A program made the position numbers and the translations under genes. A stretch of DNA of 64,000 nt from Candidatus Nanopelagicales bacterium (GTDB lineage: Bacteria > Actinomycetota > Actinomycetes > S36-B12 > UBA5976): the NCBI GenBank assembly GCA_016463095.1, contig JAEMSA010000002.1:1502-65501 (forward strand). Direction: 5' to 3'. How positions within the stretch are numbered: the first letter of the stretch is position 1; every line of letters starts with the position of its first letter. Below the pieces are notes generated by a model. That model made no database searches and was not told where the DNA came from. It saw only the letters and a list, made by a program, of their open reading frames with translations. Shown here in pieces: positions 1 through 13,044 of this stretch.

Positions 1-110
1 TCTTTTTAATAACAGTTCATCAAAGGGAGTTGACAACACCGACACTATATAAGAGGCTATTTAAGACTAGTTGTAGGACAACTATTGACTAACAATTTAG
101 GGGTTCGACG

Positions 111-1142
111 ATGAGTGAAATTCGGGCTATTTCTTGGATTAACGATGGCCTTATCCTCATTGATCAAACCAAACTTCCTCACCAGGAAATTAATTTAAGT
201 ATTGAAACAGTTGACCAATTAGTCGAGGCAATAAAAAGTTTGGCGGTCCGTGGCGCACCTGCACTAGGAGCAGCGGGAGCTTGGGGAGTTGTAGTGGCTA
301 TGCGACAAGCCGCTAAAGAAAAATGGAGTAACGAAAAAAGAAATGAAGAATTTTTAAAAATTAGGAATGCTCGACCAACAGCAGTTAACTTGGCCTGGGG
401 AGTAGATAAAGTTTTACCATTTGTCACAAATGGGGTAGATGAAGTACTTGCCCAAGCAAACAGAATTGCAGCAGAAGATGAAGCTGGTAATAAACAAATG
501 GGTAAATTTGGTTCCAGTTGGATTGAAACAAAAGTAAAAAATAGACCAATACGTGCACTAACTCATTGCAATACCGGATCTTTAGCAACAACAACTTGGG
601 GAACAGCCTTAGGTGTTATTAGAGAAATGAACTCACGAGGAATTTTGAAACATGTTATTGCTGATGAAACAAGACCACTTCTGCAAGGTGGCAGATTAAC
701 TGCTTGGGAACTTTCTCACGACAATATTGAACATTTTGTTATTGCTGATGGCGCTGCCACAAGTATCATTGCTCGCGGTGAAATTGATGTTGCACTTATT
801 GGTGCAGACAGAGTTGCAGCTAATGGAGACACTGCAAATAAAATTGGTTCATTTGCAGTTGCCTTAGCCTGTAAGTACGCAGGAATACCTTTTGTAGTTG
901 TCGCCCCTGAATCAACAATTGATTTAAAAACTTTAACCGGAAAAGATATAGAAATTGAATATCGTGATGAAAATGAAATATTGAGTTTGAATGGGCAAAG
1001 AATATCTCCAGCAAAATCAAAAGGTCTAAATCCTGCTTTTGATGTGACTCCTGCCGAATTAATTTCAGCACTTGTTACCGAAAAAGGCGTTTATGAAATT
1101 TCAAATGGAGTAACTCCTGGTACAAAGTTAGCGAAAGTATAA
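111..1142 (+). CDS. mtnA: S-methyl-5-thioribose-1-phosphate isomerase (eIF-2B alpha/beta/delta-like family)
   Basis: 343-aa ORF. Blocks 'LILIDQTKLPH', 'VRGAPALGAAGAWG', 'HCNTGSLAT' and 'GADRVAANGDTANKIG' are typical of MtnA. Its stop overlaps the next start (TAATG at 1140-1144). Confidence 0.85.
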   Translation: MSEIRAISWINDGLILIDQTKLPHQEINLSIETVDQLVEAIKSLAVRGAPALGAAGAWGVVVAMRQAAKEKWSNEKRNEEFLKIRNARPTAVNLAWGVDKVLPFVTNGVDEVLAQANRIAAEDEAGNKQMGKFGSSWIETKVKNRPIRALTHCNTGSLATTTWGTALGVIREMNSRGILKHVIADETRPLLQGGRLTAWELSHDNIEHFVIADGAATSIIARGEIDVALIGADRVAANGDTANKIGSFAVALACKYAGIPFVVVAPESTIDLKTLTGKDIEIEYRDENEILSLNGQRISPAKSKGLNPAFDVTPAELISALVTEKGVYEISNGVTPGTKLAKV

Positions 1143-3133
1143 TGTCAAATATTCCAACTCCTTTAAAAGAATTAGTTGAGAGATCAAAATTCTTAGGCGC
1201 AAACCAAGATTATGTTGTTTATGGTGGAGGTAATACTTCTGCTAAAGGTGAAATCACTGATCATTTCAATAGAAATAAAAAAGTCTTATGGGTAAAAGGC
1301 TCAGGCGCAGACATGATGAATGCGGAAGCTGTTGATTATCCGGCTTTATACATGGATGAACTATTACAAATACTAAATTTTGAGAAATTAACTGATGAGG
1401 AAATGACTGATCTAGTTAGTAGAGCACTGGTGGACCCGGCAAGTAGACGACCATCAATTGAGACCTTGCTGCACGCATTCTTGCCTTTTAAGCACATAGA
1501 TCATGTTCACGCTGATGCTATTTGTGCATTAACCAATCACAAGAATGGTGAAAAAGCAGTTAAAGAGGCACTCGGAGAAAAATTTGCTTATGTTGATTGG
1601 ATCCGTCCAGGATTTGAATTAAGCAAACAAGCCTCATTTTTAAAAGATGCTGAAGGAATAATCTTGGCGCATCACGGACTGATTGTCTGGTCAGATAACA
1701 GCGATGAATGTAAACAAAAAAATCTTGATGTCATAAATAAAGTAGAGAAGTATTTAAGTTCACTTTCCAAAAGACCAGAATCAGTTTTCCAACACACAGA
1801 TTATAGCGATGAGGAATATAAGAATCTACTTTTACAAATACGAGGCAGACTTAACAAAAAAGGTAAGAAAATATTAAGTCTTGATAATAGATTGAAAGAA
1901 ATATCAAGTCGTAAAGACATAGCAGAAGTTCTAAGCGCAGGAGTTTCTAGCGCAGATCACATGTTGAGAATTAAACCTTGGTCTGCGGTACTGAGTGAAC
2001 CAAAAGATGGTGAGAAATCAATTAAGTCTATTGATAATTTTGCCAAGAAATATGAAAGCTATTTTGAATCAAATAAGAATTTATTGCCCGCTGGCTACTC
2101 AATTCATGATTCCGATCCAAGAGTTTTACTTATTCCAGACTTAGGCGCTGTGACCGTAGGCCAGTCATTGAATGAATGCAAAATGCATGCCGATATTTCG
2201 TTTCACACCCATAAAACTGCAGCTATGGCAAAAGATGCTTTTGGAAACGTTGAAGGACTTCCTGAATCAGAAATTTTTGGTTTCGATTACTGGCCAATGG
2301 AGCTTTACAAATTAGCGAGTAAACCAGCTGCAAAGAAATTTGCAGGAAACATTTTTATTGTTACCGGTGCAGCAAGTGGAATTGGATTAGGAATAGCACT
2401 CGAGTTAGCAAAACAAGGGGCAAGTCTTGTTCTGGCAGATTTAGATGAAAAAGCTTTAAGTAGCACTGTGGAGAAGATTAAAGAAGTTAAAGGTTTGAAA
2501 CCAGAAATTATTGCTGGTGATCAAGCTGATGAAAAAGTTGTTAATAAAACAGTTGATTTAGCAATCAAAACTTTTGGTGGAATAGATGGTGTTGTTTTGA
2601 GTGCAGGTATTGCGGTAACTGATCAGCTTAAAGATTTGACAGTTGAAAAATGGAACAAAGGTTTAGCAGTTAATTTAACTAGTGCATTTTTGATGACTAA
2701 AGCTGCTTTAAATGCTATGAAGATACAAAATTCGGGTGGATCACTTGTTTATATTGCAAGTAAAAATGCGTTTGCTCCAGGTGCAGGATTTGGTGGCTAC
2801 TCAGTAAGTAAAGCCGGAATGCTGCAATTAATGCGAATCGCAGCACTTGAAGGAGGAGTAAGCCAGATAAGGGCAAATGCCATAAATCCCGATGCTATTT
2901 TTGATAACAGCAAACTCTGGGAAGGAGGAATCAGGGAAGAGAGAGCAAAGGCTCATGGTGTTAAACCAGAAGAGTTAGAAGATTTTTATGCGCAAAGAAA
3001 TATTTTAAAGTCGCATGTAACTTCTAAAGATGTAGCCAATACCACTGCTTTTTTATTGTCTGATGAATCCGCCAGAACCACAGGTTCGGTCATCGCCGTC
3101 GACGGCGGCGTGGCTGCAGCATTTCCGCGCTAA
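1142..3133 (+). CDS. Bifunctional class II aldolase/adducin-domain protein fused to a short-chain dehydrogenase (RhaEW/YuxG-like aldolase/aldehyde dehydrogenase family)
   Basis: 663 aa. The N-terminal part has 'VVYGGGNTSAKG', 'WVKGSGADM' and the His cluster 'KHIDHVHAD' (class II aldolase metal site). The C-terminal SDR has 'VTGAASGIGLG' (TGxxxGxG) and 'YSVSKAG' (YxxxK). Confidence 0.8.
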   Translation: MSNIPTPLKELVERSKFLGANQDYVVYGGGNTSAKGEITDHFNRNKKVLWVKGSGADMMNAEAVDYPALYMDELLQILNFEKLTDEEMTDLVSRALVDPASRRPSIETLLHAFLPFKHIDHVHADAICALTNHKNGEKAVKEALGEKFAYVDWIRPGFELSKQASFLKDAEGIILAHHGLIVWSDNSDECKQKNLDVINKVEKYLSSLSKRPESVFQHTDYSDEEYKNLLLQIRGRLNKKGKKILSLDNRLKEISSRKDIAEVLSAGVSSADHMLRIKPWSAVLSEPKDGEKSIKSIDNFAKKYESYFESNKNLLPAGYSIHDSDPRVLLIPDLGAVTVGQSLNECKMHADISFHTHKTAAMAKDAFGNVEGLPESEIFGFDYWPMELYKLASKPAAKKFAGNIFIVTGAASGIGLGIALELAKQGASLVLADLDEKALSSTVEKIKEVKGLKPEIIAGDQADEKVVNKTVDLAIKTFGGIDGVVLSAGIAVTDQLKDLTVEKWNKGLAVNLTSAFLMTKAALNAMKIQNSGGSLVYIASKNAFAPGAGFGGYSVSKAGMLQLMRIAALEGGVSQIRANAINPDAIFDNSKLWEGGIREERAKAHGVKPEELEDFYAQRNILKSHVTSKDVANTTAFLLSDESARTTGSVIAVDGGVAAAFPR

Positions 3134-3142
3134 ACGGAAATG
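3120..3142 (+). promoter_or_regulatory. 8-bp stem hairpin spanning the stop codon of the aldolase/SDR gene (CATTTCCG-cgctaaa-CGGAAATG), no U-tract
   Basis: Perfect inverted repeat read directly from the sequence. A second 6-bp inverted repeat, AAGTGA(3152-3157)/TCACTT(3168-3173), follows. These could be an intra-operon attenuator, an mRNA-stability element or an operator. Confidence 0.25.
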
Positions 3143-3171
3143 AGTAATAGCAAGTGAGTTAAGTAATTCAC

Positions 3172-4284
3172 TTGGCAAAAGAAGGAGAAAGCATGATAAA
3201 GAACAAAGCATTAGCTGGAATCACAGTTGTTGCTGCGTTGCTTCTTGCTGCATGTTCACAAGGCAGTAGCGATACTGCTGCGACTGCAGATGAAGGAACA
3301 GTTGCAGAAGCGACCGGTCCCAAGCCAGCACCATTTGATGCTGGTCTAGTAAAAATAGCAATCGTACAAAACAGTGGCGCCGGTGACTATTTCCAACAAT
3401 GGACAAACGGAGCAAACAAGCAAGCAGAAGCAATTGGATTTGAAGTTCAAGTCTATGACGCCCAAGCTGACAATGCTAAGCAAGCTACTGACATGGAAAC
3501 AGCAATTGGTTCAGGCGTAGCTGGAATCATTGTTGACCACGGTCAAGCAGACACCATGTGTCCATTGATCAACAAAGCACTTGACGCAGGAATCCCTGTT
3601 GTTGTTTACGACGTTGCAACCGCTGAATGTGCACCAAAAGCTGTTACAACACAACAAAGCGATGCATCACTTGCACAAGTAGTCCTAGATCAAATGGCAG
3701 TAGATCTTGGTAAAGATGCCAAAGTTGGATACGTAAACGTATTAGGTATCGCACCTTTGGATCGTCGTCACGTTGTATGGGAAGCAATTGTTAAAGCTAA
3801 CAATTGGACCCAGTCCTTCTTCGTTGGTAAATTCACCAACTCAGTTGCAACTGATAACGCACAATTAGTTGACGCAGCACTTAAGAAGAGTCCAGACGTA
3901 GTGGGTATTTTTGCACCATACGATGAACTAACTAAGGGTACTGTTTCAGGAATTGAATCAAATAACCTTCAGGCTTCAATCAAGGCATACGGAATTGATA
4001 TTTCAAATGCTGATATTGAAATCATGACTAAAGATGGTTCACCATGGGTAGCAACAGCAGGTACTGATCCAAATGCGATCGGTGCAGCAGTTGTGCGAAA
4101 CATGGCACTTGAAATAGCAGGCCAATTGGGAGTTAAATCAGTTGATTTCCCAGGTGTTCTAATTACCGCACAGTTCCTAAAGGACAATGCAGTTAAGAAC
4201 ATGGTTGACTTGCGTGCCAAGTTGCCAGAATTGAACCTTGCATCTGTCAGCGGAGCTGACTGGATTCCTGCAGTTCAGTTCTAA
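3172..4284 (+). CDS. Sugar ABC transporter substrate-binding lipoprotein (periplasmic binding protein type I, ribose/CUT2-like)
   Basis: Signal peptide with lipobox 'LLLAAC'. The likely true start is ATG 3193, preceded by AAGGAG at 3182-3187. It lies directly upstream of the matching ATPase and permease. Confidence 0.75.
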   Translation: MAKEGESMIKNKALAGITVVAALLLAACSQGSSDTAATADEGTVAEATGPKPAPFDAGLVKIAIVQNSGAGDYFQQWTNGANKQAEAIGFEVQVYDAQADNAKQATDMETAIGSGVAGIIVDHGQADTMCPLINKALDAGIPVVVYDVATAECAPKAVTTQQSDASLAQVVLDQMAVDLGKDAKVGYVNVLGIAPLDRRHVVWEAIVKANNWTQSFFVGKFTNSVATDNAQLVDAALKKSPDVVGIFAPYDELTKGTVSGIESNNLQASIKAYGIDISNADIEIMTKDGSPWVATAGTDPNAIGAAVVRNMALEIAGQLGVKSVDFPGVLITAQFLKDNAVKNMVDLRAKLPELNLASVSGADWIPAVQF

Positions 4285-4309
4285 TTAATAAGTAGATGGA
4301 GGCGAGTTA

Positions 4310-5815
4310 ATGGTTTCAGCTGTTGAAGTTAGAAACATTTCAATGGCATTTGGTGCAAACCAAGTGTTAAGTGGAGTGGATTTAACAATCGACAAAGGAC
4401 AAACCACAGCATTGTTAGGAGCTAACGGTGCAGGTAAGTCCACATTAATTAAAATTTTGTCCGGTGTTTATTCATCTTTTACCGGAGAAATATTGATTGA
4501 TGGAAAAGTTGTTACCATTGACTCGCCAACTACTGCGAAATCAGCAGGTATTGAGACTGTTCATCAAAGAATTGATGAGGGAGTAATTCCCGGTTTAACA
4601 GTCGCTGAAAATTTATTGTTTGAAAAAATTGTCTCAGGAGAAATTCCAAGAGCGGTTTCTTTAAAAACAATTGTTAATGAAGCAGAAAAAATAGCTGAAG
4701 CTTTAGACCTAAATTGGAATAGATCCAAGCTACGAAATGATGTTTATGAATTAGGCATTGCTGAACAACAAATGCTGATCTTAGCCAGGACTCTTTCTAG
4801 GTCCCCCAAACTTTTAATTTTAGATGAACCAACTTCTGCTCTCTCTGTTGCTGAAAGTCAAAACTTATTTAGATTTATCAAGAATCTCGAAGCACAAGGA
4901 ATTGCTATTTTATATGTTTCTCACAAATTAAGTGAATTAGAACAAATTGCTAAGAAACTTGTTGTTATGCGAGATGGAAAGATTAGAAATGAACAAAGCG
5001 CACCGTTTTCATGGGATCTGGCTTTGAAAGAAATGTTAGGGCAACAAGAACTTGGCGAAAGAGATAATTTTAAACAGGTTCAAGGTACCAGTGTGACATT
5101 GAAATTAAATAATGTTCAATTGTTTAAGGAAAGTGCACCGTTGAATTTAGAAATAAAGAAAAAAGAAGTCACTGGAATTATTGGTCTGCTTGGTGCAGGT
5201 AAAACTGAACTTGCAAAAGTTATTTATGGGGCAGATGAATTAATTTCAGGCTCAATGGATCTTGAGGGACAATCATATAAACCAGCACATCCCGCAGATG
5301 CGGTTATAAAAGATATCTATTTAGTCCCAGAAGATCGTGCAGCAGATTCAATGATTCCAAATTGGAGTATTTCGCACACTGCAACTTTACCTTTTATGGG
5401 AGATTTTTCAGCTCGCGGAATAATTAAAAAACTTGCAGAAGGTATACGCGGTAAAGAACTTGTCCAAGATTTAAAAGTTGTGACAACTTCGCATGAAGCA
5501 TTTGTTGATTCCCTTTCTGGCGGAAATCAACAAAAAGTTATTGTGGGAAGATGGCTGCAATCAAAACCTAAATTAATGATTTTGGATGAACCATTTAGAG
5601 GTGTTGATATTGGAGCCAGAAGAGATATTTCTAAACGAGTGAGAGATTTAGCTGCCACAGATGTTGCAGTATTGGTGCTGGCTTCAGATGTAGATGAAAT
5701 TTTAGATGTTGCAGATCGAATTATTGTGCTAGTGGAAGGAAAAGTTGTAATGGATGTAAAAGCTGGGGAAACATCGAAAGACAAAATAGTAAACAAAATG
5801 TCGGAGGTGGCATAA
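4310..5815 (+). CDS. Sugar ABC transporter ATP-binding protein with tandem ABC cassettes (CUT2 type)
   Basis: 501 aa. Cassette 1 has Walker A 'GANGAGKST' and Walker B 'LLILDEPTS'. Cassette 2 has 'GLLGAGKTE', signature 'LSGGNQQK' and 'LMILDEPFRGVD'. Confidence 0.9.
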   Translation: MVSAVEVRNISMAFGANQVLSGVDLTIDKGQTTALLGANGAGKSTLIKILSGVYSSFTGEILIDGKVVTIDSPTTAKSAGIETVHQRIDEGVIPGLTVAENLLFEKIVSGEIPRAVSLKTIVNEAEKIAEALDLNWNRSKLRNDVYELGIAEQQMLILARTLSRSPKLLILDEPTSALSVAESQNLFRFIKNLEAQGIAILYVSHKLSELEQIAKKLVVMRDGKIRNEQSAPFSWDLALKEMLGQQELGERDNFKQVQGTSVTLKLNNVQLFKESAPLNLEIKKKEVTGIIGLLGAGKTELAKVIYGADELISGSMDLEGQSYKPAHPADAVIKDIYLVPEDRAADSMIPNWSISHTATLPFMGDFSARGIIKKLAEGIRGKELVQDLKVVTTSHEAFVDSLSGGNQQKVIVGRWLQSKPKLMILDEPFRGVDIGARRDISKRVRDLAATDVAVLVLASDVDEILDVADRIIVLVEGKVVMDVKAGETSKDKIVNKMSEVA

Positions 5816-6844
5816 ATGAATATCGGAAAATTAAATGCAACAAATGGATTTGACTTGAGAGATTTCATTGTCAAATACGGCTTTATTTTGGTGACAGTTA
5901 TTCTTTTTGTTTGGTTTGCTTCAACAGAGCCTACTTTTAGAATGCAAAACACTTTGTTTTCAATGCTTAAATTCACATCTGTTGTTGCAATTACCGGACT
6001 TGGTGTGACTTTAACAATGGTGGTGGGAGGTCTTGATCTTTCTGTTGGTGCAATTGCAGGATTATCAGTAACTCTTTCTGCAATGACAATGGTTATTTAT
6101 GCGCAAACAGGAGCCGTTGCCCTAGTAGTAGTACTACTGGGTGGTGCCTTAGTTGGACTATTTAATGCCTTTTTAATTGTGGTTTTAAAGATTCCAGATT
6201 TACTTGCAACCCTGGCAACGATGTTTACGATCATGGGATTAAAACTTGTTCCAGTTGATGGTCAATCAGTTTCTTCAGGTTTAATTTTAAGAGATGGAAG
6301 TGTGGCCCCAGGAAAATTCACTCCAGGATTCTTACTTATTGATCGTGCCTACCTTGGTCCCGTACCACTACCTGTGGCTATCTTTTTCTTTTTAGCATTT
6401 GTAGTTTGGATTTTCTTAACCAAAACTAGATGGGGCAGAGTTATGTATGCAATTGGCTCAAACCCAGAAGCTGCAAGATTAGCTGGCGTTCGTGTTCAAA
6501 GATACCGAGCTCTTGCTTATGCACTCTCAGGTGTTTTTGCCTCAATTGGTGGCTTGATTCTTTCGTCAAGAATTGGGCAAGGAGATATCAGTGCCGGAAA
6601 CTCTCTGTTGCTAGATGCTGTGGCTGTTTCCTTGGTTGGAACTTCAGTTTTGGGTATGGCAAGACCAAACGCATGGGGTACAACTCTTGGCGCAGTTTTA
6701 ATCGGCATAGTAATCACTGGATTAACAATTAAAGGTTTTCCATATTATGCCCAAGATGTGGTTAAGGGACTTGTCTTATTAACCGCTTTGATATTCTCGT
6801 TTACACTTTCTAGACGAAAGTCTAGATTTGTGCCGGCGGTTTAA
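5816..6844 (+). CDS. Sugar ABC transporter permease (RbsC/AraH-like)
   Basis: 342 aa and highly hydrophobic, with a multi-TM profile. Its ATG immediately follows the ATPase stop (TAAATG). Confidence 0.8.
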   Translation: MNIGKLNATNGFDLRDFIVKYGFILVTVILFVWFASTEPTFRMQNTLFSMLKFTSVVAITGLGVTLTMVVGGLDLSVGAIAGLSVTLSAMTMVIYAQTGAVALVVVLLGGALVGLFNAFLIVVLKIPDLLATLATMFTIMGLKLVPVDGQSVSSGLILRDGSVAPGKFTPGFLLIDRAYLGPVPLPVAIFFFLAFVVWIFLTKTRWGRVMYAIGSNPEAARLAGVRVQRYRALAYALSGVFASIGGLILSSRIGQGDISAGNSLLLDAVAVSLVGTSVLGMARPNAWGTTLGAVLIGIVITGLTIKGFPYYAQDVVKGLVLLTALIFSFTLSRRKSRFVPAV

Positions 6845-6855
6845 AGGAAAGAAAA

Positions 6856-8082
6856 ATGACTGATCAATACGAGTTTTTAACAAAAGATAATATTTCAAAA
6901 TATTTATCAAGCAAAAAAGTATTTGCCAACTTAATTGATGCCAACAGCCTTGTTGAATTCAAAGAAGTTGGTGACGGAAACCTCAATTTAGTTTTCATTA
7001 TGAAGGACTCTGCAGGCAAAGGAATAGTTTTAAAACAAGCTTTGCCATATGTGCGCTTAGTGGGACCTGATTGGCCTATGACTCCAACCAGAGCCAGAAT
7101 CGAAGCCGAAACCACAATTATTCATGCCAAATATGCTCAAGATCTTGTTCCAGAAATTTATGATTATGATCCAGAACGTTTCATTATTGCGATGGAAGAT
7201 TTATCTGATCATGTTGTTTGGCGCGGAGCATTAAATTTAGGTTTAAGATTTGATGGTGTAGCCGGGCCCTTAGGCAAATATGTTGCCAATACAGCTTTTG
7301 GTACTTCCGTTTTTAGTTTGGGACAAGAACAACACAAATTAGAAATAGCCAGGGCAATAAATCCAGGTCTTTGTTTAATCACAGAAGACTTAGTTTTTAC
7401 TGAACCTTATTTTGAAAACGGTAGAAACTCAGTGCTACCAAGCAATGAAAAAGATGCTCAAGAACTTGCTAACGATAAAGACATGGTCCACGAAATTGGT
7501 TTATTAAAATACAAGTTCATGACAGCTGGTGAATCACTTATTCACGGAGATCTTCATACCGGATCTGCCATGATCAAATGTGAAGATAAAAAAGTAGCTG
7601 AAAGTGTGAAAGCAATAGATTCTGAGTTCTCATTTTATGGACCGATTGGTTTTGATCTTGGCGCACTTGTTGCTAACTACACAATTGCTGCTGCTAGAGC
7701 TTGTGCACTAGGAAATGTTGAACAAATGCATTGGGCCTTAAGCCTTGGGGAACAGACTTGGGTTGCATTCGAAAAAGAATTCAGGAAACTATGGCCAACC
7801 CGAGTTGATAAAAGAGTTTTCACAGATCAACTTTTAGAAGACTTAATTAAAACTTGGAGAGAAGATACCTTAGGTTATGCAGGGGCAAAGATGGCTCGAA
7901 GAATAGTTGGACTGGCAAAAACCTCAGATATCGAAACCCTTGAACCAAATGTACGCGAAGGTGCAGCACGAGCAGTTTTATTAATTGCTAGAAAAACTAC
8001 GAAAGAAAGAGCACAAGATAAGTCTTGGGCAACACTTGCTAAAGAAGCAGCAGAAATTATCCAAAAAACAGTAACTAAATAA
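6856..8082 (+). CDS. mtnK: S-methyl-5-thioribose kinase
   Basis: 408 aa. 'EVGDGNLNLVF' is the nucleotide-binding loop typical of MtnK. 'LIHGDLHTGS' is the APH-type catalytic loop. Confidence 0.85.
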   Translation: MTDQYEFLTKDNISKYLSSKKVFANLIDANSLVEFKEVGDGNLNLVFIMKDSAGKGIVLKQALPYVRLVGPDWPMTPTRARIEAETTIIHAKYAQDLVPEIYDYDPERFIIAMEDLSDHVVWRGALNLGLRFDGVAGPLGKYVANTAFGTSVFSLGQEQHKLEIARAINPGLCLITEDLVFTEPYFENGRNSVLPSNEKDAQELANDKDMVHEIGLLKYKFMTAGESLIHGDLHTGSAMIKCEDKKVAESVKAIDSEFSFYGPIGFDLGALVANYTIAAARACALGNVEQMHWALSLGEQTWVAFEKEFRKLWPTRVDKRVFTDQLLEDLIKTWREDTLGYAGAKMARRIVGLAKTSDIETLEPNVREGAARAVLLIARKTTKERAQDKSWATLAKEAAEIIQKTVTK

Positions 8083-8090
8083 GGAAAAAT

Positions 8091-8450
8091 TTGAAAACAC
8101 CTAGAGAAATTGCCGAGTCATACTGGAAAGCAGAATGCGCCAGGGACACAAAAGCTGTGTTAGAGCACTATCACTCCGATGCAACTTTTTGCCCACCTGG
8201 AGAAAAATTAGTTGGACATGATCAAATTAGAACTTTTTATGATGCCTCAGGGGAAGCATTTCCTGGTTTAAAAGTTGATATTTTGCATGAAGTAAGAAAT
8301 GGTGATGAAAGTTGTATTGAATGGTATGCAACTCTAACCGATAAAGCAGGAAATGTTTTTAATATTCCTGGAGTAAACGTAATTAAAATAAGAGACGGAA
8401 AATTTGAATCTGTACACGCATACTTTGATCCAACAGTGCTAAAAGGCTAA
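8091..8450 (+). CDS. NTF2-fold / SnoaL-like protein of unknown function
   Basis: 119 aa with a TTG start. The pattern 'YWKAECARD..AVLEHYHSDATF' and the small alpha+beta size are typical of SnoaL/ketosteroid-isomerase-like proteins. It is the last gene of the mtnK operon. Confidence 0.5.
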   Translation: MKTPREIAESYWKAECARDTKAVLEHYHSDATFCPPGEKLVGHDQIRTFYDASGEAFPGLKVDILHEVRNGDESCIEWYATLTDKAGNVFNIPGVNVIKIRDGKFESVHAYFDPTVLKG

Positions 8451-9550
8451 TTTTCTAAACTGTCCACAAAAGTTCTTAAGCCTTTAGCGTTTTCTAAAAG
8501 ATTACCTCGGTGCAGTGCCCCACCTATTAGTAAGAATGTGTCCATCCCAAAAAAGTTTGCAATTTCTGGAATTCTGTCAATCGTCATGCCCCCACCAGGA
8601 GAAGGAAAAATTGTCTTAATATTTCCTAATTTAGAACGACAGGCATTAGCAATATTTGTGCATTCATCTTTTGAGAAACTAAATCTGCCACCAAAGTTAG
8701 GGAAAACACTTATATCTGCACCACTTAAACGCATCAAGGTTGCCAGAATTATTTCATGGTTTAAACCATGATTGCTATTCATTACATGGGATCCTAAATT
8801 TGAAGGATGACTCATGATGGGCAGTGAAACCTCTTGGCTATCTGCAATCATTCTCATGGTGTCGAATCCAGCTACTCCGGGCAGAACCATTAGCGCACCA
8901 CTACCTAATTTTCGAGCAGTAATAGCAGCTTCTAACATTTGTTCTGCTGGTCGATTAATGCTTGGTGCATAAACAGATTTTCTATTAAATTTTTGGTTTG
9001 CTTCTACAACTGCACTTGAAATTACTTTCACCCGCTCATTCCATTTAGCCCACGGCTGATTAGCCAAACTATGATCATCTTTTATTAAATCAATTCCTGC
9101 CTCAACCATAACTGTGGCAATACTTGCTAACTCAGTTGAATTTAATCCCATTGGTTTTAGCGCTGTAGCTAAAATGGGACGTTTTTTTGCTCCCAATAAT
9201 TCTCTAACTCCACTTATGCCAAAACGTGGTCCTTTTAAAGTGTTTAAAAAGTCATCAGGGAATTCAACTTTTGTCACTTTCACATCAGGAAACATTGAAA
9301 CATTTCCCCACACCACATTTAACATCTGACCTATTTCATAGCCTGTGGTGTCAGTATTGAAATCTATTACAACTTCTGTCTGGGAATTTCCAATTTCTTT
9401 GGATGAAACCACTTGACCAACAACTTCTTTTTGAATCCATTCGGGAGCCAGATCAAAGGGAAATTCAATAGTCTGCTCAACCCTGATTGCTTCAGTTACT
9501 TCTTTACTGGTTTTTGTATTAAGACGATAAGTAATCTGAATTGAAGACAT
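8447..9550 (-). CDS. RuBisCO-like protein (form IV RuBisCO large-subunit homologue, not a carboxylase)
   Basis: 367 aa. By-eye alignment to the RuBisCO large chain gives 'WGNVSMF' (N123 region), 'RPILATALKPMGLNS' (K175 loop), 'GIDLIKDDHSLANQPW' (K201/D203 motif, with His at the E204 position), 'PSPGGGM' and 'LLIGGALH'. There is no small-subunit or prk gene nearby. Confidence 0.8.
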   Translation of the reverse strand: MSSIQITYRLNTKTSKEVTEAIRVEQTIEFPFDLAPEWIQKEVVGQVVSSKEIGNSQTEVVIDFNTDTTGYEIGQMLNVVWGNVSMFPDVKVTKVEFPDDFLNTLKGPRFGISGVRELLGAKKRPILATALKPMGLNSTELASIATVMVEAGIDLIKDDHSLANQPWAKWNERVKVISSAVVEANQKFNRKSVYAPSINRPAEQMLEAAITARKLGSGALMVLPGVAGFDTMRMIADSQEVSLPIMSHPSNLGSHVMNSNHGLNHEIILATLMRLSGADISVFPNFGGRFSFSKDECTNIANACRSKLGNIKTIFPSPGGGMTIDRIPEIANFFGMDTFLLIGGALHRGNLLENAKGLRTFVDSLEN

Positions 9551-9555
9551 ACTTA

Positions 9556-10569
9556 CTACAAAGCCTCAGCTTTTGCAGTGCTATGCACATCAATCACTCT
9601 GGTTTGAGAAAGTTCTTCTTCAGATATTTTTAAGTTTTTATCCATTAGTTTTTCGGTGGCTTCAATTAAGTTACGAGCACTCATTCCATATTTATGCAAC
9701 AGATATTTTTGAGATGCTCCATGAGCGTAAGTATCTTTCAAACCAATTTTGATCAGTTTTTTACCAATCCCGTGTTCAGCAATTAAATCTGCAACAGCAC
9801 TTCCTAAACCACCAATCACACTGTGGTTTTCCATGGTGATAACTCCGTATTTACTTGATTTAAGACTTTCAATTACCCGAGGATCGGTGAAAGGTTTCAA
9901 AGTTGAAATGTGTAAATGTTGCACACTTACGCCATGTTCTTGAAGTGCAGGGATTGCTCTTAAAGCTTCTTCAGTTGATATTCCAGAACTTAAAACTGTG
10001 ACATCTGTTCCTGTGCTCAAAATACGAGCAGTGTTAAATTCCATGACCTCATTTTTTGGAAAAATCCTCGAGATTTCACCTCGCAGCATTCTGATATAGA
10101 CCGGACCATCTACTTCATGGGCCACATCTAGAACTGATTCGACTTCTGTGGCATCCCCAGTTTCTAGAATTGTCATGTTTGGGATTCCTCGCAAAACATT
10201 GACATCATCAATTGCTTGATGGGTAACTCCTCCAGGAGTTGTGATGCCGGGCAAAAAACCGACCATTCTCACCCGCAGATTTGGGTAGGCCACCGACATT
10301 TCAAGTTGATCAAGTGGTCTGCGATAAATAAATACTGCAAATGTGTGAATCCAAGGCTCAAAACCTTCACGGGCTAAACCGCCTGCAAAACCTAACATGT
10401 TTTGTTCACCTAAGCCGAAAGAAAAGAATCTTTCTGGGAAAGTGTCTCTAAATTTTCCAACTTCACAAGAACTGGTTAAGTCTGCTGATAAAACTACAAC
10501 TTCGGGTTTGAATTTACTCCAGCGCACAAAATTTTCAACGTGAGGTCTTTTAACAATTTCGTAAGCCAT
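9556..10569 (-). CDS. Transketolase, C-terminal (pyrimidine-binding + C-terminal domain) subunit
   Basis: 337 aa. 'FSFGLGEQNMLGFAGGLAREGFEPWIHTFAVF' is typical of the TK Pyr domain. It lies 1 nt after the N-terminal subunit gene. Confidence 0.85.
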   Translation of the reverse strand: MAYEIVKRPHVENFVRWSKFKPEVVVLSADLTSSCEVGKFRDTFPERFFSFGLGEQNMLGFAGGLAREGFEPWIHTFAVFIYRRPLDQLEMSVAYPNLRVRMVGFLPGITTPGGVTHQAIDDVNVLRGIPNMTILETGDATEVESVLDVAHEVDGPVYIRMLRGEISRIFPKNEVMEFNTARILSTGTDVTVLSSGISTEEALRAIPALQEHGVSVQHLHISTLKPFTDPRVIESLKSSKYGVITMENHSVIGGLGSAVADLIAEHGIGKKLIKIGLKDTYAHGASQKYLLHKYGMSARNLIEATEKLMDKNLKISEEELSQTRVIDVHSTAKAEAL

Positions 10570-10570
10570 T

Positions 10571-11491
10571 CTATTTCCAAGCTTTCAAAAAATTATTGTA
10601 TTTAATTTTTTCAAAAGGATTAGCAAATCTGACGTAATGCAGAGCATCAGGTCTATCTTTCAAAATTTCAATTCCTTTAGCTGGATCTGTGTAACCTAGA
10701 ATTACTTTTGGTTTATCTTGGAATGTTGAACCTGCAGCTAATATTTGGTTTATGTCGTTGCCGTCAATTTTTTCAACGTCCCAACCAAAGCTTTTTATTC
10801 TTTCAGTTAGAGGCTCAATTGACATAACTTTTTCCATGGGACCATCTACTTGGTTTCTGTTAACATCTACGATTACTCGAACATTACTTAAATTATGAAA
10901 ACTTATTGCAGCTAAAGCTTCCCAAGTTTGTCCTTCTTGAAATTCTCCATCTGACATAAAAATCCAAGTCTTTCCTGATTCACCGCGCAACTTTCTAGCT
11001 AAAGCAACGCCCCCTGCTTGGGAAAGAGCCTGGGAAAGAGATCCAGTTGTGGTTTCAAATCCTGGTGAATGTTCAGCACCAATCATTTCCACAGTCGTAC
11101 CATCTTTATTAAATTTCTCTAAAGACTTTTCAGTTAATCTTCCGGTTTCAATTAGGGCCGCATAAATAACAAGTGCGTAATGGGCGGGGCTTATGAATAA
11201 ACGATCTAGTGCTGGACCTTTTTCGCCATGAAATTCTGCACCGGTTATATATTCAGTGAAATTTTTACTGGGCACATTGACAAAATCACGAGGTTCTAGT
11301 GGGGAAGCTAAGGGAGCAAGATTGACGAGTTTTGTGTATAGGCAAGAAAGAATTTCTGCAGCAGAACAGGCTTGGCTTAAATATCCGCCATTGTTTTTGA
11401 CGGTGTGCTCAAGTACTCGATGGCGAATGCCATGGGCCATAGAGGCTATTTGGTCAATATCTGTTTGTGTCGATGCTTTAGTTATGCTCAT
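10571..11491 (-). CDS. Transketolase, N-terminal (ThDP pyrophosphate-binding) subunit
   Basis: 306 aa. The ThDP motif is 'SDGEFQEGQTWEA...VDVNRNQVDG'. 'SPAHYALVIYAAL' is also present. Confidence 0.85.
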   Translation of the reverse strand: MSITKASTQTDIDQIASMAHGIRHRVLEHTVKNNGGYLSQACSAAEILSCLYTKLVNLAPLASPLEPRDFVNVPSKNFTEYITGAEFHGEKGPALDRLFISPAHYALVIYAALIETGRLTEKSLEKFNKDGTTVEMIGAEHSPGFETTTGSLSQALSQAGGVALARKLRGESGKTWIFMSDGEFQEGQTWEALAAISFHNLSNVRVIVDVNRNQVDGPMEKVMSIEPLTERIKSFGWDVEKIDGNDINQILAAGSTFQDKPKVILGYTDPAKGIEILKDRPDALHYVRFANPFEKIKYNNFLKAWK

Positions 11492-11542
11492 TTCGCTTCA
11501 GCATAGCAAAGAGAATAGTTGTCCTACAAGTTAAATTCTCAA

Positions 11543-11572
11543 CAAAAAAGCCCCCGTAAATTTCCCGGGGGC
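11543..11572 (-). terminator. Intrinsic terminator downstream of the whiB3-like gene
   Basis: On the - strand, GCCCCCG (11572-11566) pairs with CGGGGGC (11556-11550). A run of six U follows (A-run 11544-11549 on +), 35 nt after the stop. Confidence 0.7.
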
Positions 11573-11606
11573 ATTCTTGTTTGGAGGGTATTACAGATAA
11601 AAGTTT

Positions 11607-11906
11607 CTAGCCAGCGACTGGAAATGTTTCCTTGGCTGGGGCATAGATGGCTTCTCGATCATCTTCACTCATCGCACCCCACACACCGTAAGGTTCACGC
11701 ACAGCTAAGGCATGTTCAGCACATTGGCGAAGCACAGGGCAGGTGGCACAAATCGATTTAGCCAGCGAAATCCTATTTTCGCGGGAAGGTCCACGTTCAC
11801 CCTCAGGATGAAAGAAGATCTCAGGATCTTCTCCACGGCATGCTCCCTTTAACTGCCAGTCCCATAGATCAGAGTTGGGTCCAGGAAGACGGGTCACATC
11901 AGCCAT
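11607..11906 (-). CDS. whiB3: WhiB-family [4Fe-4S] transcription factor, WhiB3/WhiD-like
   Basis: 99 aa. 'LPGPNSDLWDWQLKGACRG', 'FFHPEGERG', 'CATCPVLRQC' and 'PYGVWGAMSE' match the WhiB3/WhiD N-terminal pattern, the four Cys and the G[VI]WGG turn. Confidence 0.85.
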   Translation of the reverse strand: MADVTRLPGPNSDLWDWQLKGACRGEDPEIFFHPEGERGPSRENRISLAKSICATCPVLRQCAEHALAVREPYGVWGAMSEDDREAIYAPAKETFPVAG

Positions 11907-11936
11907 GATTTTCCTTTTTTGAGGGGGTATGTCCTA

Positions 11937-11966
11937 AATATAGAATACTATTCATAACTTGGTCAA
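11937..11966 (-). promoter_or_regulatory. Candidate sigma-70-type promoter of the whiB3-like gene (-35 TTGACC, 18-nt spacer, -10 TATATT)
   Basis: Read on the - strand: TTGACC is the complement of 11961-11966 and TATATT is the complement of 11937-11942. An 11-bp palindrome GAATAcTATTC (11943-11953) sits inside the spacer. Confidence 0.4.
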
Positions 11967-12024
11967 TCGTTCAGACAGGTCCGCTCTTGTGAAGTCCGTC
12001 TCATAGCAATACGATGAGCCAAAG

Positions 12025-13044
12025 TTGTTCAACCACAACAGATTTGGCCAAATGAGCGTAGAAAGTGTTGCCCAAGAGTCGGTAGGCCTGACCGTGGCCG
12101 TTGTGGCCAGACGCGTGGGGGTTGCTCCAGCCACACTTCGCACCTGGGAAAGACGCTATGGAATTTATCCCACCGATAGATCAAGTGGGGGACATCGCCG
12201 CTACTCCATAACCGATGTTGCTCGGTTGGAATTAATGCGCAGGTTAGTTTTATCTGGAATGCCAGCAGGTCAAGCTGCCAAGATGGCCTTGCAATCAGAA
12301 ATTGGCAAACTTGAGGATTCATCATTTTTTGATTCCAACGTTTTAACTAAAACTGTTGATTCACTGTTAAGCAATATTTCTGTTGATTCAGAATTTAGTC
12401 ATCCCGGTGGTGGCGCTGTATTAGCAATGCAAGGATCTTCTGCGATTGCTCGCGGATTAGCTAAAGCTGCCTACTCACTTGATGCACCTGCTTGTACTCA
12501 ATTGATTCAAAACAGTTTGCATGCCAAGGGTGTTAGTTGGACTTGGGAGAAGTTGTTATCTCCAGTAATTTGTGCGCTTGGTAAGAAGTGGGAATCCTCC
12601 GGACAAGGAATTGAAGCCGAACATATTTTATCGGAATGTATCATTGGCCAATTGAAACAAATATCTGATCAATTAATTGCCCCAATAAATATAAGACCAG
12701 TGTTACTTGCTGCCGCAGCAGACGAGTTACACACTATTCCTCAATATGTGGTGGCAGCAGCGTTAGCTGAAAGAAAAATTGGTAGTAGATCACTTGGTGC
12801 AAGAGTTCCGCACGATTCTTTATTAAATGCCATAAAAAGATTAGCCCCCGCTGCTGTTTTAATCTGGGCACAAATTCCTGTGAAAACTATTCCTGTGGAA
12901 TATGAAATTTTAATTAACTCTCGACCAGCTCCACTACTGTTGATGGTTGGCCCTGGCTGGCCTGAAAATTTACCGCATGGTTTCACAAGAGCTGGAGATT
13001 TAAACTCCACCATTACAGCGATCAGTAATGCCTTGGGACAGTAA
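12025..13044 (+). CDS. MerR-family regulator with a CarH/LitR-type cobalamin-binding module (candidate B12-dependent light sensor)
   Basis: The N-terminal MerR HTH is 'LTVAVVARRVGVAPATLRTWERRYG...GGHRRYS'. The helical-bundle motif 'W189-ESSGQGIEA-E199-H200' is an exact Wx9EH. The Rossmann-like part 'VLLAAAADELHTIP...GARVPHDSLLNAIKRLAPAAVLIW' resembles the DxHxxG B12-binding domain. The start is either TTG 12025 or ATG 12052. Confidence 0.65.
   Translation: MFNHNRFGQMSVESVAQESVGLTVAVVARRVGVAPATLRTWERRYGIYPTDRSSGGHRRYSITDVARLELMRRLVLSGMPAGQAAKMALQSEIGKLEDSSFFDSNVLTKTVDSLLSNISVDSEFSHPGGGAVLAMQGSSAIARGLAKAAYSLDAPACTQLIQNSLHAKGVSWTWEKLLSPVICALGKKWESSGQGIEAEHILSECIIGQLKQISDQLIAPINIRPVLLAAAADELHTIPQYVVAAALAERKIGSRSLGARVPHDSLLNAIKRLAPAAVLIWAQIPVKTIPVEYEILINSRPAPLLLMVGPGWPENLPHGFTRAGDLNSTITAISNALGQ

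Follow-up and report, generated by a model that had tools for sequence, protein, structure and literature searches.

The closest described relatives of the protein studied here are the RuBisCO-like proteins (RLPs) of the 'DeepYkr' type, known from the methylthioadenosine (MTA)-isoprenoid shunt of Rhodospirillum rubrum and Rhodopseudomonas palustris. Their representative RLP1, encoded in the rlp1-cupin pair RPA2169/RPA2170, is a 5-(methylthio)ribulose-1-phosphate 1,3-isomerase in vivo and in vitro, and the sole known job of the cupin is removal of the methylthio group (PMC5893883). In the published assays, the RLP step received MgCl2 as its sole added metal (PMC5893883). A second type of RLP, MtnW/YkrW of Bacillus subtilis and Geobacillus kaustophilus (PDB 2OEK, 2ZVI and 4NAS), works in methionine salvage and likewise stands in a context with MtnK and MtnA. 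The dihydroxyacetone phosphate (DHAP) shunt, in turn, employs MtnK or MtnP, MtnA and a class II aldolase (Ald2/DrdA) to deal with the by-products MTA and 5'-deoxyadenosine; R. palustris runs both the DHAP shunt and the RLP route (PMC5893883). Here we describe an RLP encoded in a 64,000-nt stretch of DNA (hereafter, the window) from a Candidatus Nanopelagicales bacterium (contig JAEMSA010000002.1 of assembly GCA_016463095.1, positions 1,502-65,501). We predict from its sequence that this RLP is most likely a 5-methylthio-D-ribulose-1-phosphate 1,3-isomerase. The apparent novelty is that, across many bacteria and also in diatoms, it is almost always paired with an altered transketolase (TK)-like enzyme.

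The window RLP adopts the RuBisCO large-subunit fold and falls in the short (~370 aa) RLP class, as indicated by Pfam (RuBisCO_large, 89 bits), AlphaFold2 and Foldseek. The AlphaFold2 model is confident (pLDDT 94, pTM 0.92), and its top Foldseek match is 3QFW (TM 0.90/0.94), deposited as 'Rubisco-like protein from Rhodopseudomonas palustris', which is also the best PDB sequence match (E 4.6e-65). We aligned the window RLP with spinach RbcL, G. kaustophilus MtnW, 4NAS, 3QFW and nine homologues using MAFFT L-INS-i. Residue numbers for the landmarks are those of spinach RbcL, for which we used a sequence 100% identical to PDB 8RUC/1IR1. The residues N123 (N83 of the window RLP, in WGNVS), K175 (K132), K201 (K157), D203 (D159), H294 (H248) and the glycine pair G403/G404 (G343/G344) are kept. 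K177 meets a one-residue deletion that leaves the loop shorter by one, with M134 beside the gap (LKP-MGL). E204 is replaced by H160, R295 by P249 (SHPS), H327 by V282 (ISVFP), K334 by R289 and S379 by G319 (PSPGGGM). These assignments agree throughout with the residue calls that the first-pass annotation had made by eye. The stretch it gave for IKDDH, nt 9071-9082, does encode the KDDH part, and the codon of I156 lies just outside, at 9083-9085.

The position of H160 deserves particular care, as an offset histidine could leave an acidic residue in the place of the second metal ligand. The segment K157-Q165 aligns with spinach K201-Q209 in MAFFT without a gap, and HMMER, run separately, sets H160 opposite the glutamate of the MtnW KDDE motif. 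Thus, the histidine is not offset and no aspartate or glutamate stands in for it. The offset idea was likewise rejected by the gap-free course of K157-Q165 in the HMMER alignments to MtnW and 3QFW and in a MAFFT alignment of 240 sequences.

This residue pattern speaks against two familiar identities. A bona fide CO2-fixing RuBisCO, form II/III-like, would share the RuBisCO_large fold and the retained K175, K201, D203, H294 and N123. Yet six of the ten catalytic residues (E204, K177, R295, H327, K334 and S379) are replaced, the protein is about 100 residues shorter and scores under every RuBisCO NCBIfam cut-off, and there are no Prk or AMP-pathway genes at the locus, so that we give this identity practically no chance. 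An MtnW/YkrW-type 2,3-diketo-5-methylthiopentyl-1-phosphate enolase of classical methionine salvage has slightly more in its favor: the MtnW models are the top NCBIfam matches by score, MtnK and MtnA are encoded nearby, and MtnW shares the RLP fold, K175, K201, D203, H294 and Pro295 with the window RLP. The scores, however, lie far under the cut-offs (145.3 versus 513.6 bits for TIGR03332 and 208.9 versus 409 bits for NF007095), and identity to MtnW is 29%. Where MtnW has Lys123, its catalytic base, Glu204 and Ser334, the window RLP has Asn (N83), His (H160) and Arg. Moreover, the Pfam matches of the locus and of the scanned parts of the window include no stand-alone MtnB-type gene of the class II aldolase family, no MtnX-type haloacid dehalogenase (HAD) phosphatase and no MtnD-type cupin. 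We therefore consider an MtnW-type enolase highly improbable. On the NCBIfam cut-offs and the catalytic residues, we thus reject assignment to MtnW, to a RuBisCO of form I-III or to OiaX, an RLP of the apiose pathway.

Upon wider comparison, we found that the KDDH motif is shared by practically the whole family. We assembled 238 full-length homologues, 118 of them from the 120 best matches of the window RLP and 120 being the best relatives of 3QFW. Across this set N83, K132, K157, D159, H248, P249 and R289 are invariant, and position 160 is a histidine in 237 sequences and a glutamine in one. KDDH is found in 119 of the 120 best matches of the window RLP (117 of the 118 full-length ones), the remaining one reading KDDQ, and all 120 relatives of 3QFW carry KDDHG. 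3QFW itself reads DLIKDDHGLADQ, and every other substitution of the window RLP is present there too. The active-site signature that we derived from 3QFW and R. palustris RLP1-type sequences (N123, K175, K201, D203, His204, H294, Pro295 and Arg334) is complete in the window RLP. KDDH is therefore a family-wide signature of DeepYkr-type RLPs and H160 no oddity of this protein. The sole KDDQ protein (P0019, from an Actinomycetota metagenome-assembled genome (MAG), 59% identical to the window RLP) represents a natural His-to-Gln variant.

The identity of 3QFW ties this signature to a known activity. Its gene in R. palustris BisB18 and that of P0163, an R. palustris protein 65% identical to 3QFW, are each followed by an overlapping Cupin_2 gene, matching the order of RPA2169/RPA2170. 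The suggestion of the first-pass annotation that a Lys-Asp-His site would be unusual among RLPs thus fails: the pattern is standard for the clade of the R. palustris RLP1-type 1,3-isomerase, it is ordinary for the family, and to call it a new metal site is a mistake. The accompanying idea of a different chemistry holds in one sense, as this clade isomerizes by a 1,3-proton shift via enediolates and performs neither enolization nor carboxylation. A different metal finds no support; since MgCl2 alone sufficed as the added metal in the published assays, current knowledge does not require one. H160 could be a metal ligand or an acid/base for the second proton transfer, and the glutamine of P0019 is compatible with either role.

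DeepYkr Rlp1 thus resembles the window RLP in fold, in length class (~365-378 aa), in its linkage to MtnA and an enzyme forming 5-methylthioribose-1-phosphate, and in all landmark states, including KDDH and the arginine at 334, with the exception of the K177 position. There, the window set has methionine in 118 of 118 sequences, as opposed to glutamine in 119 of 120 in the R. palustris set. The two types are 36-38% identical, and the window RLP keeps a six-residue RuBisCO-like loop after H248 that the alphaproteobacterial DeepYkr proteins lack. In a neighbor-joining tree, in which R. palustris RLP1-type proteins stood in for the R. rubrum RLP and which covered neither IV-GOS nor IV-AMC reference sequences, the window RLP lies in a large multi-phylum sister clade of the alphaproteobacterial group, nearer to that group than to MtnW. 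Its nearest relatives come from freshwater metagenomes and from 'Ca. Nanopelagicales'/Planktophila MAGs, and a pattern scan of species-representative genomes found relatives encoded at no fewer than 577 places.

The most conspicuous difference concerns the partner gene: a cupin methylsulfurylase accompanies DeepYkr Rlp1, whereas a split thiamine diphosphate (ThDP) enzyme accompanies the window RLP. The two subunits of this enzyme, an N-terminal PP subunit (TKN) and a C-terminal Pyr + C subunit (TKC), are encoded on the same minus strand as the RLP in the order TKN-TKC-RLP, with gaps of just 1 and 5 nt, TKC ending 5 nt upstream of the RLP start. This spacing indicates a single transcription unit. 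We aligned 48 N-subunits and 57 C-subunits, the window's own counted, with Escherichia coli TktA, whose numbering we validated on PDB 2R5N, and with the functional split transketolase of Carboxydothermus hydrogenoformans (6YAK/6YAJ), the nearest solved relative. As in transketolase, the ligands of ThDP and Mg2+ (H66, G114, D155 and N185), the activating E411, H473 and the distal phosphate clamp of R358, S385 and R520 are kept. In contrast to transketolase, H26 is replaced by tyrosine in 48 of 48 N-subunits (Y37 in the window) and H100 by methionine in 44 of 48 (M136), while all 57 C-subunits have phenylalanine for H461 (F105/L106 in the window) and glycine for D469 (G113). A family-specific insertion of about 30 residues follows the first helix of the N-subunit; it is conserved, together with the four replacements, in the RLP-linked family.

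The window subunits reach 186.8 and 156.8 bits against the NCBIfam transketolase model, with a cut-off of 488, and also stay under the cut-offs for 1-deoxyxylulose-5-phosphate (DXP) synthase (DXS). With these scores and with H26, H100, H461 and D469 replaced, the partner is not a canonical transketolase. Matches to TKN at E<=1e-30 amount to 104 cluster representatives in 1.84 billion proteins, which points to a small, distinct subfamily. In transketolase structures, H26 and H100 contact the C3 and C1 hydroxyls of the donor, and D469 contacts its C4 hydroxyl. The residue pattern of the TK-like enzyme would suit a donor that is a five-carbon ketose 5-phosphate and has no hydroxyl at C1, such as 1-methylthioxylulose-5-phosphate (MTXu-5-P) or DXP. 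We infer that the TK-like enzyme may cleave the RLP product.

The pairing extends well beyond the window. We surveyed the gene context of the 80 closest of the at least 577 relative-encoding places, all in GTDB species-representative genomes. Wherever enough upstream DNA was available, TKN, TKC and RLP lay on one strand in 50 of 58 loci (47 found by script and 3 hidden by over-long calls of open reading frames (ORFs)), and this module often directly follows MtnK-MtnA. The carriers belong to the Actinomycetota, Chloroflexota, Planctomycetota, Spirochaetota, Bacillota and Proteobacteria, and the cultured ones include Georgenia sp. H159, Alicyclobacillus sp. ALC3, Alkalispirochaeta alkalica and Pseudovibrio sp. 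SPO723. In three loci (L004, L009 and L063), the neighbor of the RLP is not the TK pair but a cupin homologous to that of R. palustris, and two of their RLPs are 55-57% identical to the window RLP. Because these cupin-linked loci nest inside the TK-linked clade, a single type of RLP seems to have the TK-like enzyme and the cupin as alternative partners.

Gene fusions link the same components. In centric diatoms (Thalassiosira exigua, T. profunda, Cyclotella atomus, C. cryptica and Skeletonema) RLP, TKN and TKC form single polypeptides of 1115-1185 aa (P0391-P0405), one of which derives from an MMETSP transcript marked complete. On a JGI metagenome contig, an RLP-TKN-TKC fusion gene is interrupted by short GT..AG introns (L083:2243-5812). 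In addition, we found RLP-Cupin_2 fusions (P0423, P0433, P0434, P0454, P0461, P0464, P0489 and P0491) and fusions of MtnA (IF-2B) to Transketolase_N (P0468, P0483 and P0504). All three kinds of fusion carry the same KDDH and TK-like signatures and support a shared pathway. Full-text searches in a limited collection of papers turned up no report that connects a transketolase with a DeepYkr RLP, with MTXu-5-P or with the diatom RLP fusions.

Several loci of the survey depart from the common layout. Among the actinobacterial relatives that keep the cupin, L004 has it fused to a CoA_binding_2 domain (1068-1967, minus strand), and in L009 it adjoins one (1469-2331, minus strand), a hint that the methylsulfurylase of these loci might use CoA and not glutathione as its thiol co-substrate. 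In three Ca. Planktophila MAGs (L007, L010 and L014) the RLP comes right after MtnA and an aldolase fused to a short-chain dehydrogenase/reductase (SDR), without TK-like genes. A gene for an ArAE/FUSC-type exporter-like protein follows the RLP in L010 and L014, and an ORF of the same cluster runs off the contig in L007; this may be a third arrangement. L014 also has a gene for a CoA-disulfide-reductase-like Pyr_redox_2 + rhodanese protein about 2 kb downstream of the RLP. Another group, from Acidimicrobiia-type and other MAGs (L042, L044, L046, L049, L051 and L053), has two MtnA paralogues per locus, one by an aldolase/SDR fusion and an ATP-binding cassette (ABC) importer, the other within MtnK-MtnA-TKN-TKC-RLP. 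Near these genes lie a DeoC/LacD-family aldolase, a SorC-type regulator and an RbsD/FucU mutarotase. The duplication suggests two substrates or two branches. Finally, in a Planctomycetaceae MAG, a pyridoxal-phosphate (PLP) enzyme of Cys/Met metabolism (380 aa; L079:7113-8255, plus strand) is encoded on the RLP strand, immediately upstream of the RLP. No other clear sulfur-amino-acid gene stands beside an RLP in the 80 loci.

The landmarks of the window RLP all match those of 3QFW and the R. palustris RLP1-type proteins. We consider it probable, by a fair measure, that the window RLP is a DeepYkr 1,3-isomerase in an MtnK/MtnA salvage route in which the TK-like partner replaces the cupin. The MtnK and MtnA genes of the window exceed their NCBIfam cut-offs, which links the RLP genomically to enzymes making 5-methylthioribulose-1-phosphate. 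Residue pattern, family membership by sequence and fold, gene linkage and gene fusions are observed; the substrate, the order of the steps and all of the chemistry of the TK-like enzyme are our proposal. The ABC importer would take up a 5-substituted ribose, namely 5-methylthioribose and possibly also 5-deoxyribose, which MtnK would phosphorylate at C1 and MtnA would isomerize to the ketose-1-phosphate. From there, two parallel branches may depart. In the first, the aldolase/SDR fusion, which occurs together with MtnA in 31-36 of the 80 related loci, is a candidate for a DHAP-shunt-like branch acting on the same ketose-1-phosphate. In the second, the RLP would shift the carbonyl from C2 to C4, making MTXu-5-P, and the co-transcribed split ThDP enzyme would take over from the cupin MTXu-5-P methylsulfurylase. 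ThDP would add to C2 of the RLP product, and cleavage between C2 and C3 would release glyceraldehyde-3-phosphate and leave a ThDP-bound C2 unit. For this unit, the most economical course would be a phosphoketolase-like beta-elimination of methanethiolate, a better leaving group than that of phosphoketolase, to enol-acetyl-ThDP; phosphoketolase serves here as an analogy and not as a claim of homology. Such an elimination would yield methanethiol and acetate or acetyl-phosphate, and the thiol co-substrate of the cupin route would not be needed; the plain alternative would be release of 2-methylthioacetaldehyde. We put forward as a tentative idea, possible rather than probable, that the RLP and the TK-like lyase provide a third, so far undescribed way out of the MtnK/MtnA trunk of SAM by-product salvage, converting MTXu-5-P to glyceraldehyde-3-phosphate, methanethiol and an acetyl unit with neither thiol co-substrate nor O2.

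A number of observations weigh against this reading. The window RLP is just 36-38% identical to the characterized type, and it differs from it by the methionine in place of glutamine at the K177 position and by the six-residue loop after H248. The recurrent neighbors are sugar-catabolic (a SorC-type regulator, RbsD/FucU, a DeoC/LacD aldolase and an FGGY kinase). Sulfur salvage is not directly indicated, because the Pfam-scanned parts of the window hold no methanethiol-assimilating or MTA-cleaving gene, and the actual substrate could be 5-deoxyribose or some other sugar. Furthermore, the aldolase branch of the locus would partly overlap in function with a route by RLP and TK to triose phosphate and a C2 unit.

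5-Deoxyribose as the source of the substrate defines a serious rival. Here an RLP of the same family, with the same proton-shift chemistry, would turn 5-deoxy-D-ribulose-1-phosphate, which 5-deoxyribose or 5'-deoxyadenosine would supply, directly into DXP, and the TK-like enzyme would cleave DXP or transfer part of it, in a scavenging of 5-deoxypentose carbon that is compatible with a DeepYkr isomerase acting on the methylthio sugar. An MtnK/MtnA-type kinase and isomerase followed by an aldolase correspond, in outline, to a published 5-deoxyribose salvage (PMC6079011). TKC scores well against DXS models, and the replacements of H100 by methionine and of H26 by tyrosine fit a methyl at C1 as well as a methylthiomethyl. 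Since the neighbors are sugar-catabolic and no sulfur gene recurs in the related loci, conversion of 5-deoxyribose to DXP is a serious and non-exclusive rival. On the other hand, cupin homologues replace the TK-like genes in the nested loci, and RLP-cupin fusions exist; the methylthio-removing job of the cupin points to a sulfur-bearing RLP product and thus against 5-deoxyribose. So do the related locus with the Cys/Met PLP enzyme directly upstream of its RLP and the fact that an RLP-TK branch would here duplicate the aldolase branch. On balance, we regard the deoxy sugar as a rather unlikely main substrate.

A further reading holds that the TK-linked clade has diverged to another reaction on another imported sugar phosphate, in which case the TK might even precede the RLP and KDDH would reflect ancestry only. 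The modest identity of 36-38% to characterized enzymes, the clade-specific Met134 and the loop differences leave room for such a divergence, the ABC importer is of a generic ribose type, and the RLP superfamily is functionally diverse, with OiaX of the apiose pathway in NCBIfam as an example. However, the catalytic landmarks are all identical to those of the characterized clade, the MtnK and MtnA genes, above equivalog cut-offs, are adjacent or fused, and cupin-linked members nest within the clade. In addition, the TK-like enzyme has kept its distal-phosphate ligands, which suits a substrate with the phosphate at C5, as the RLP would make it, and not at C1, as MtnA does. A wholly different reaction therefore seems improbable to us, more so than a deoxy sugar as substrate, and we retain the DeepYkr isomerase as the preferred identity.

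The complete locus is listed in Table 1. A plus-strand operon comprising MtnA, the aldolase/SDR fusion, the importer, MtnK and a SnoaL-like protein converges on the RLP gene. It thereby holds the kinase, isomerase and aldolase of the DHAP shunt; it differs from that shunt in the fusion of the aldolase to an SDR, in the presence of an ABC importer and in the added branch of RLP and ThDP enzyme. The stop codons of the RLP and SnoaL-like genes overlap by 4 nt (8447-8450) in convergent orientation, and the two convergent operons therefore leave no intergenic space for a terminator. None of the window ORFs encodes a homologue of the R. palustris cupin, so the linkage to a cupin methylsulfurylase known from R. 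palustris is absent here.

Table 1. Genes, RLP motifs and further elements at the RLP locus (positions in the window)
Feature	Position	Strand	Basis or remark
MtnA, S-methyl-5-thioribose-1-phosphate isomerase	111..1142	+	TIGR00512, 402.5 bits vs cut-off 279
Class II aldolase-SDR fusion	1142..3133	+	Pfam Aldolase_II + adh_short; under NCBIfam equivalog cut-offs
Ribose-type sugar ABC importer	3172..6844	+	binding protein 3172-4284, ATPase 4310-5815, permease 5816-6844
MtnK, S-methyl-5-thioribose kinase	6856..8082	+	TIGR01767, 384.6 bits vs cut-off 275
Small SnoaL-like protein (gene at the end of the plus-strand operon)	8091..8450	+	Pfam SnoaL_2; in 6/80 related loci
RLP, DeepYkr type	8447..9550	-	367 aa, ATG start; Pfam RuBisCO_large
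RLP motif ISVFPNFGGRF	8681..8713	-	V282 for H327, R289 for K334
RLP codons of K157-D158-D159-H160 (spinach K201-D202-D203-E204)	9071..9082	-	His at the second metal-ligand position
RLP motif LKPMG	9146..9160	-	K132 (K175) kept; M134 in place of K177
TKC, C-terminal (Pyr + C) subunit of split TK-like ThDP enzyme	9556..10569	-	Pfam Transket_pyr + Transketolase_C
TKN, N-terminal (PP) subunit of split TK-like ThDP enzyme	10571..11491	-	alignment to TktA and 6YAK/6YAJ
Terminator-like GC-rich hairpin + T-run	11537..11575		after the WhiB-like ORF
WhiB-like small ORF	11607..11906	-	recognized by eye from its Cys motif
MerR-family regulator	12025..13044	+	weak B12-binding_2 match

Just upstream of the TK-like genes lies a WhiB-like small ORF, which is kept in L001-L003 and is followed by a hairpin that resembles a terminator; the gene of a MerR-family regulator is transcribed divergently. 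Rfam gave no match at gathering thresholds over the whole window, with two chance-level matches at E<=1 in positions 1-13000, and thus no sign of operon control by a riboswitch or other RNA element (for example, of the SAM type). The Pfam scans, which covered ORFs of 180 aa or longer at 16.5-31.5 and 31.6-54.9 kb, brought up housekeeping genes only, with no methanethiol-assimilating, MTA-cleaving or other sulfur/methionine genes.

The RLP 1,3-isomerases characterized so far form one alphaproteobacterial, cupin-linked branch, and the multi-phylum relatives of the window RLP pair instead with a remodelled transketolase. Relatives with this partner include streamlined freshwater Actinobacteria of the Nanopelagicales type and diatoms. 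If the TK-like enzyme does process the RLP product, its ThDP-dependent reaction would be new, and so would the way in which methylthioribose or 5-deoxyribose is recycled, with a transketolase scaffold re-purposed beside a RuBisCO scaffold. A third salvage exit would be common to the abundant Actinobacteria of fresh water, to many other bacterial phyla and to centric diatoms, the last having it fused into one polypeptide, and such a route would bear on the scavenging of sulfur and carbon in plankton.

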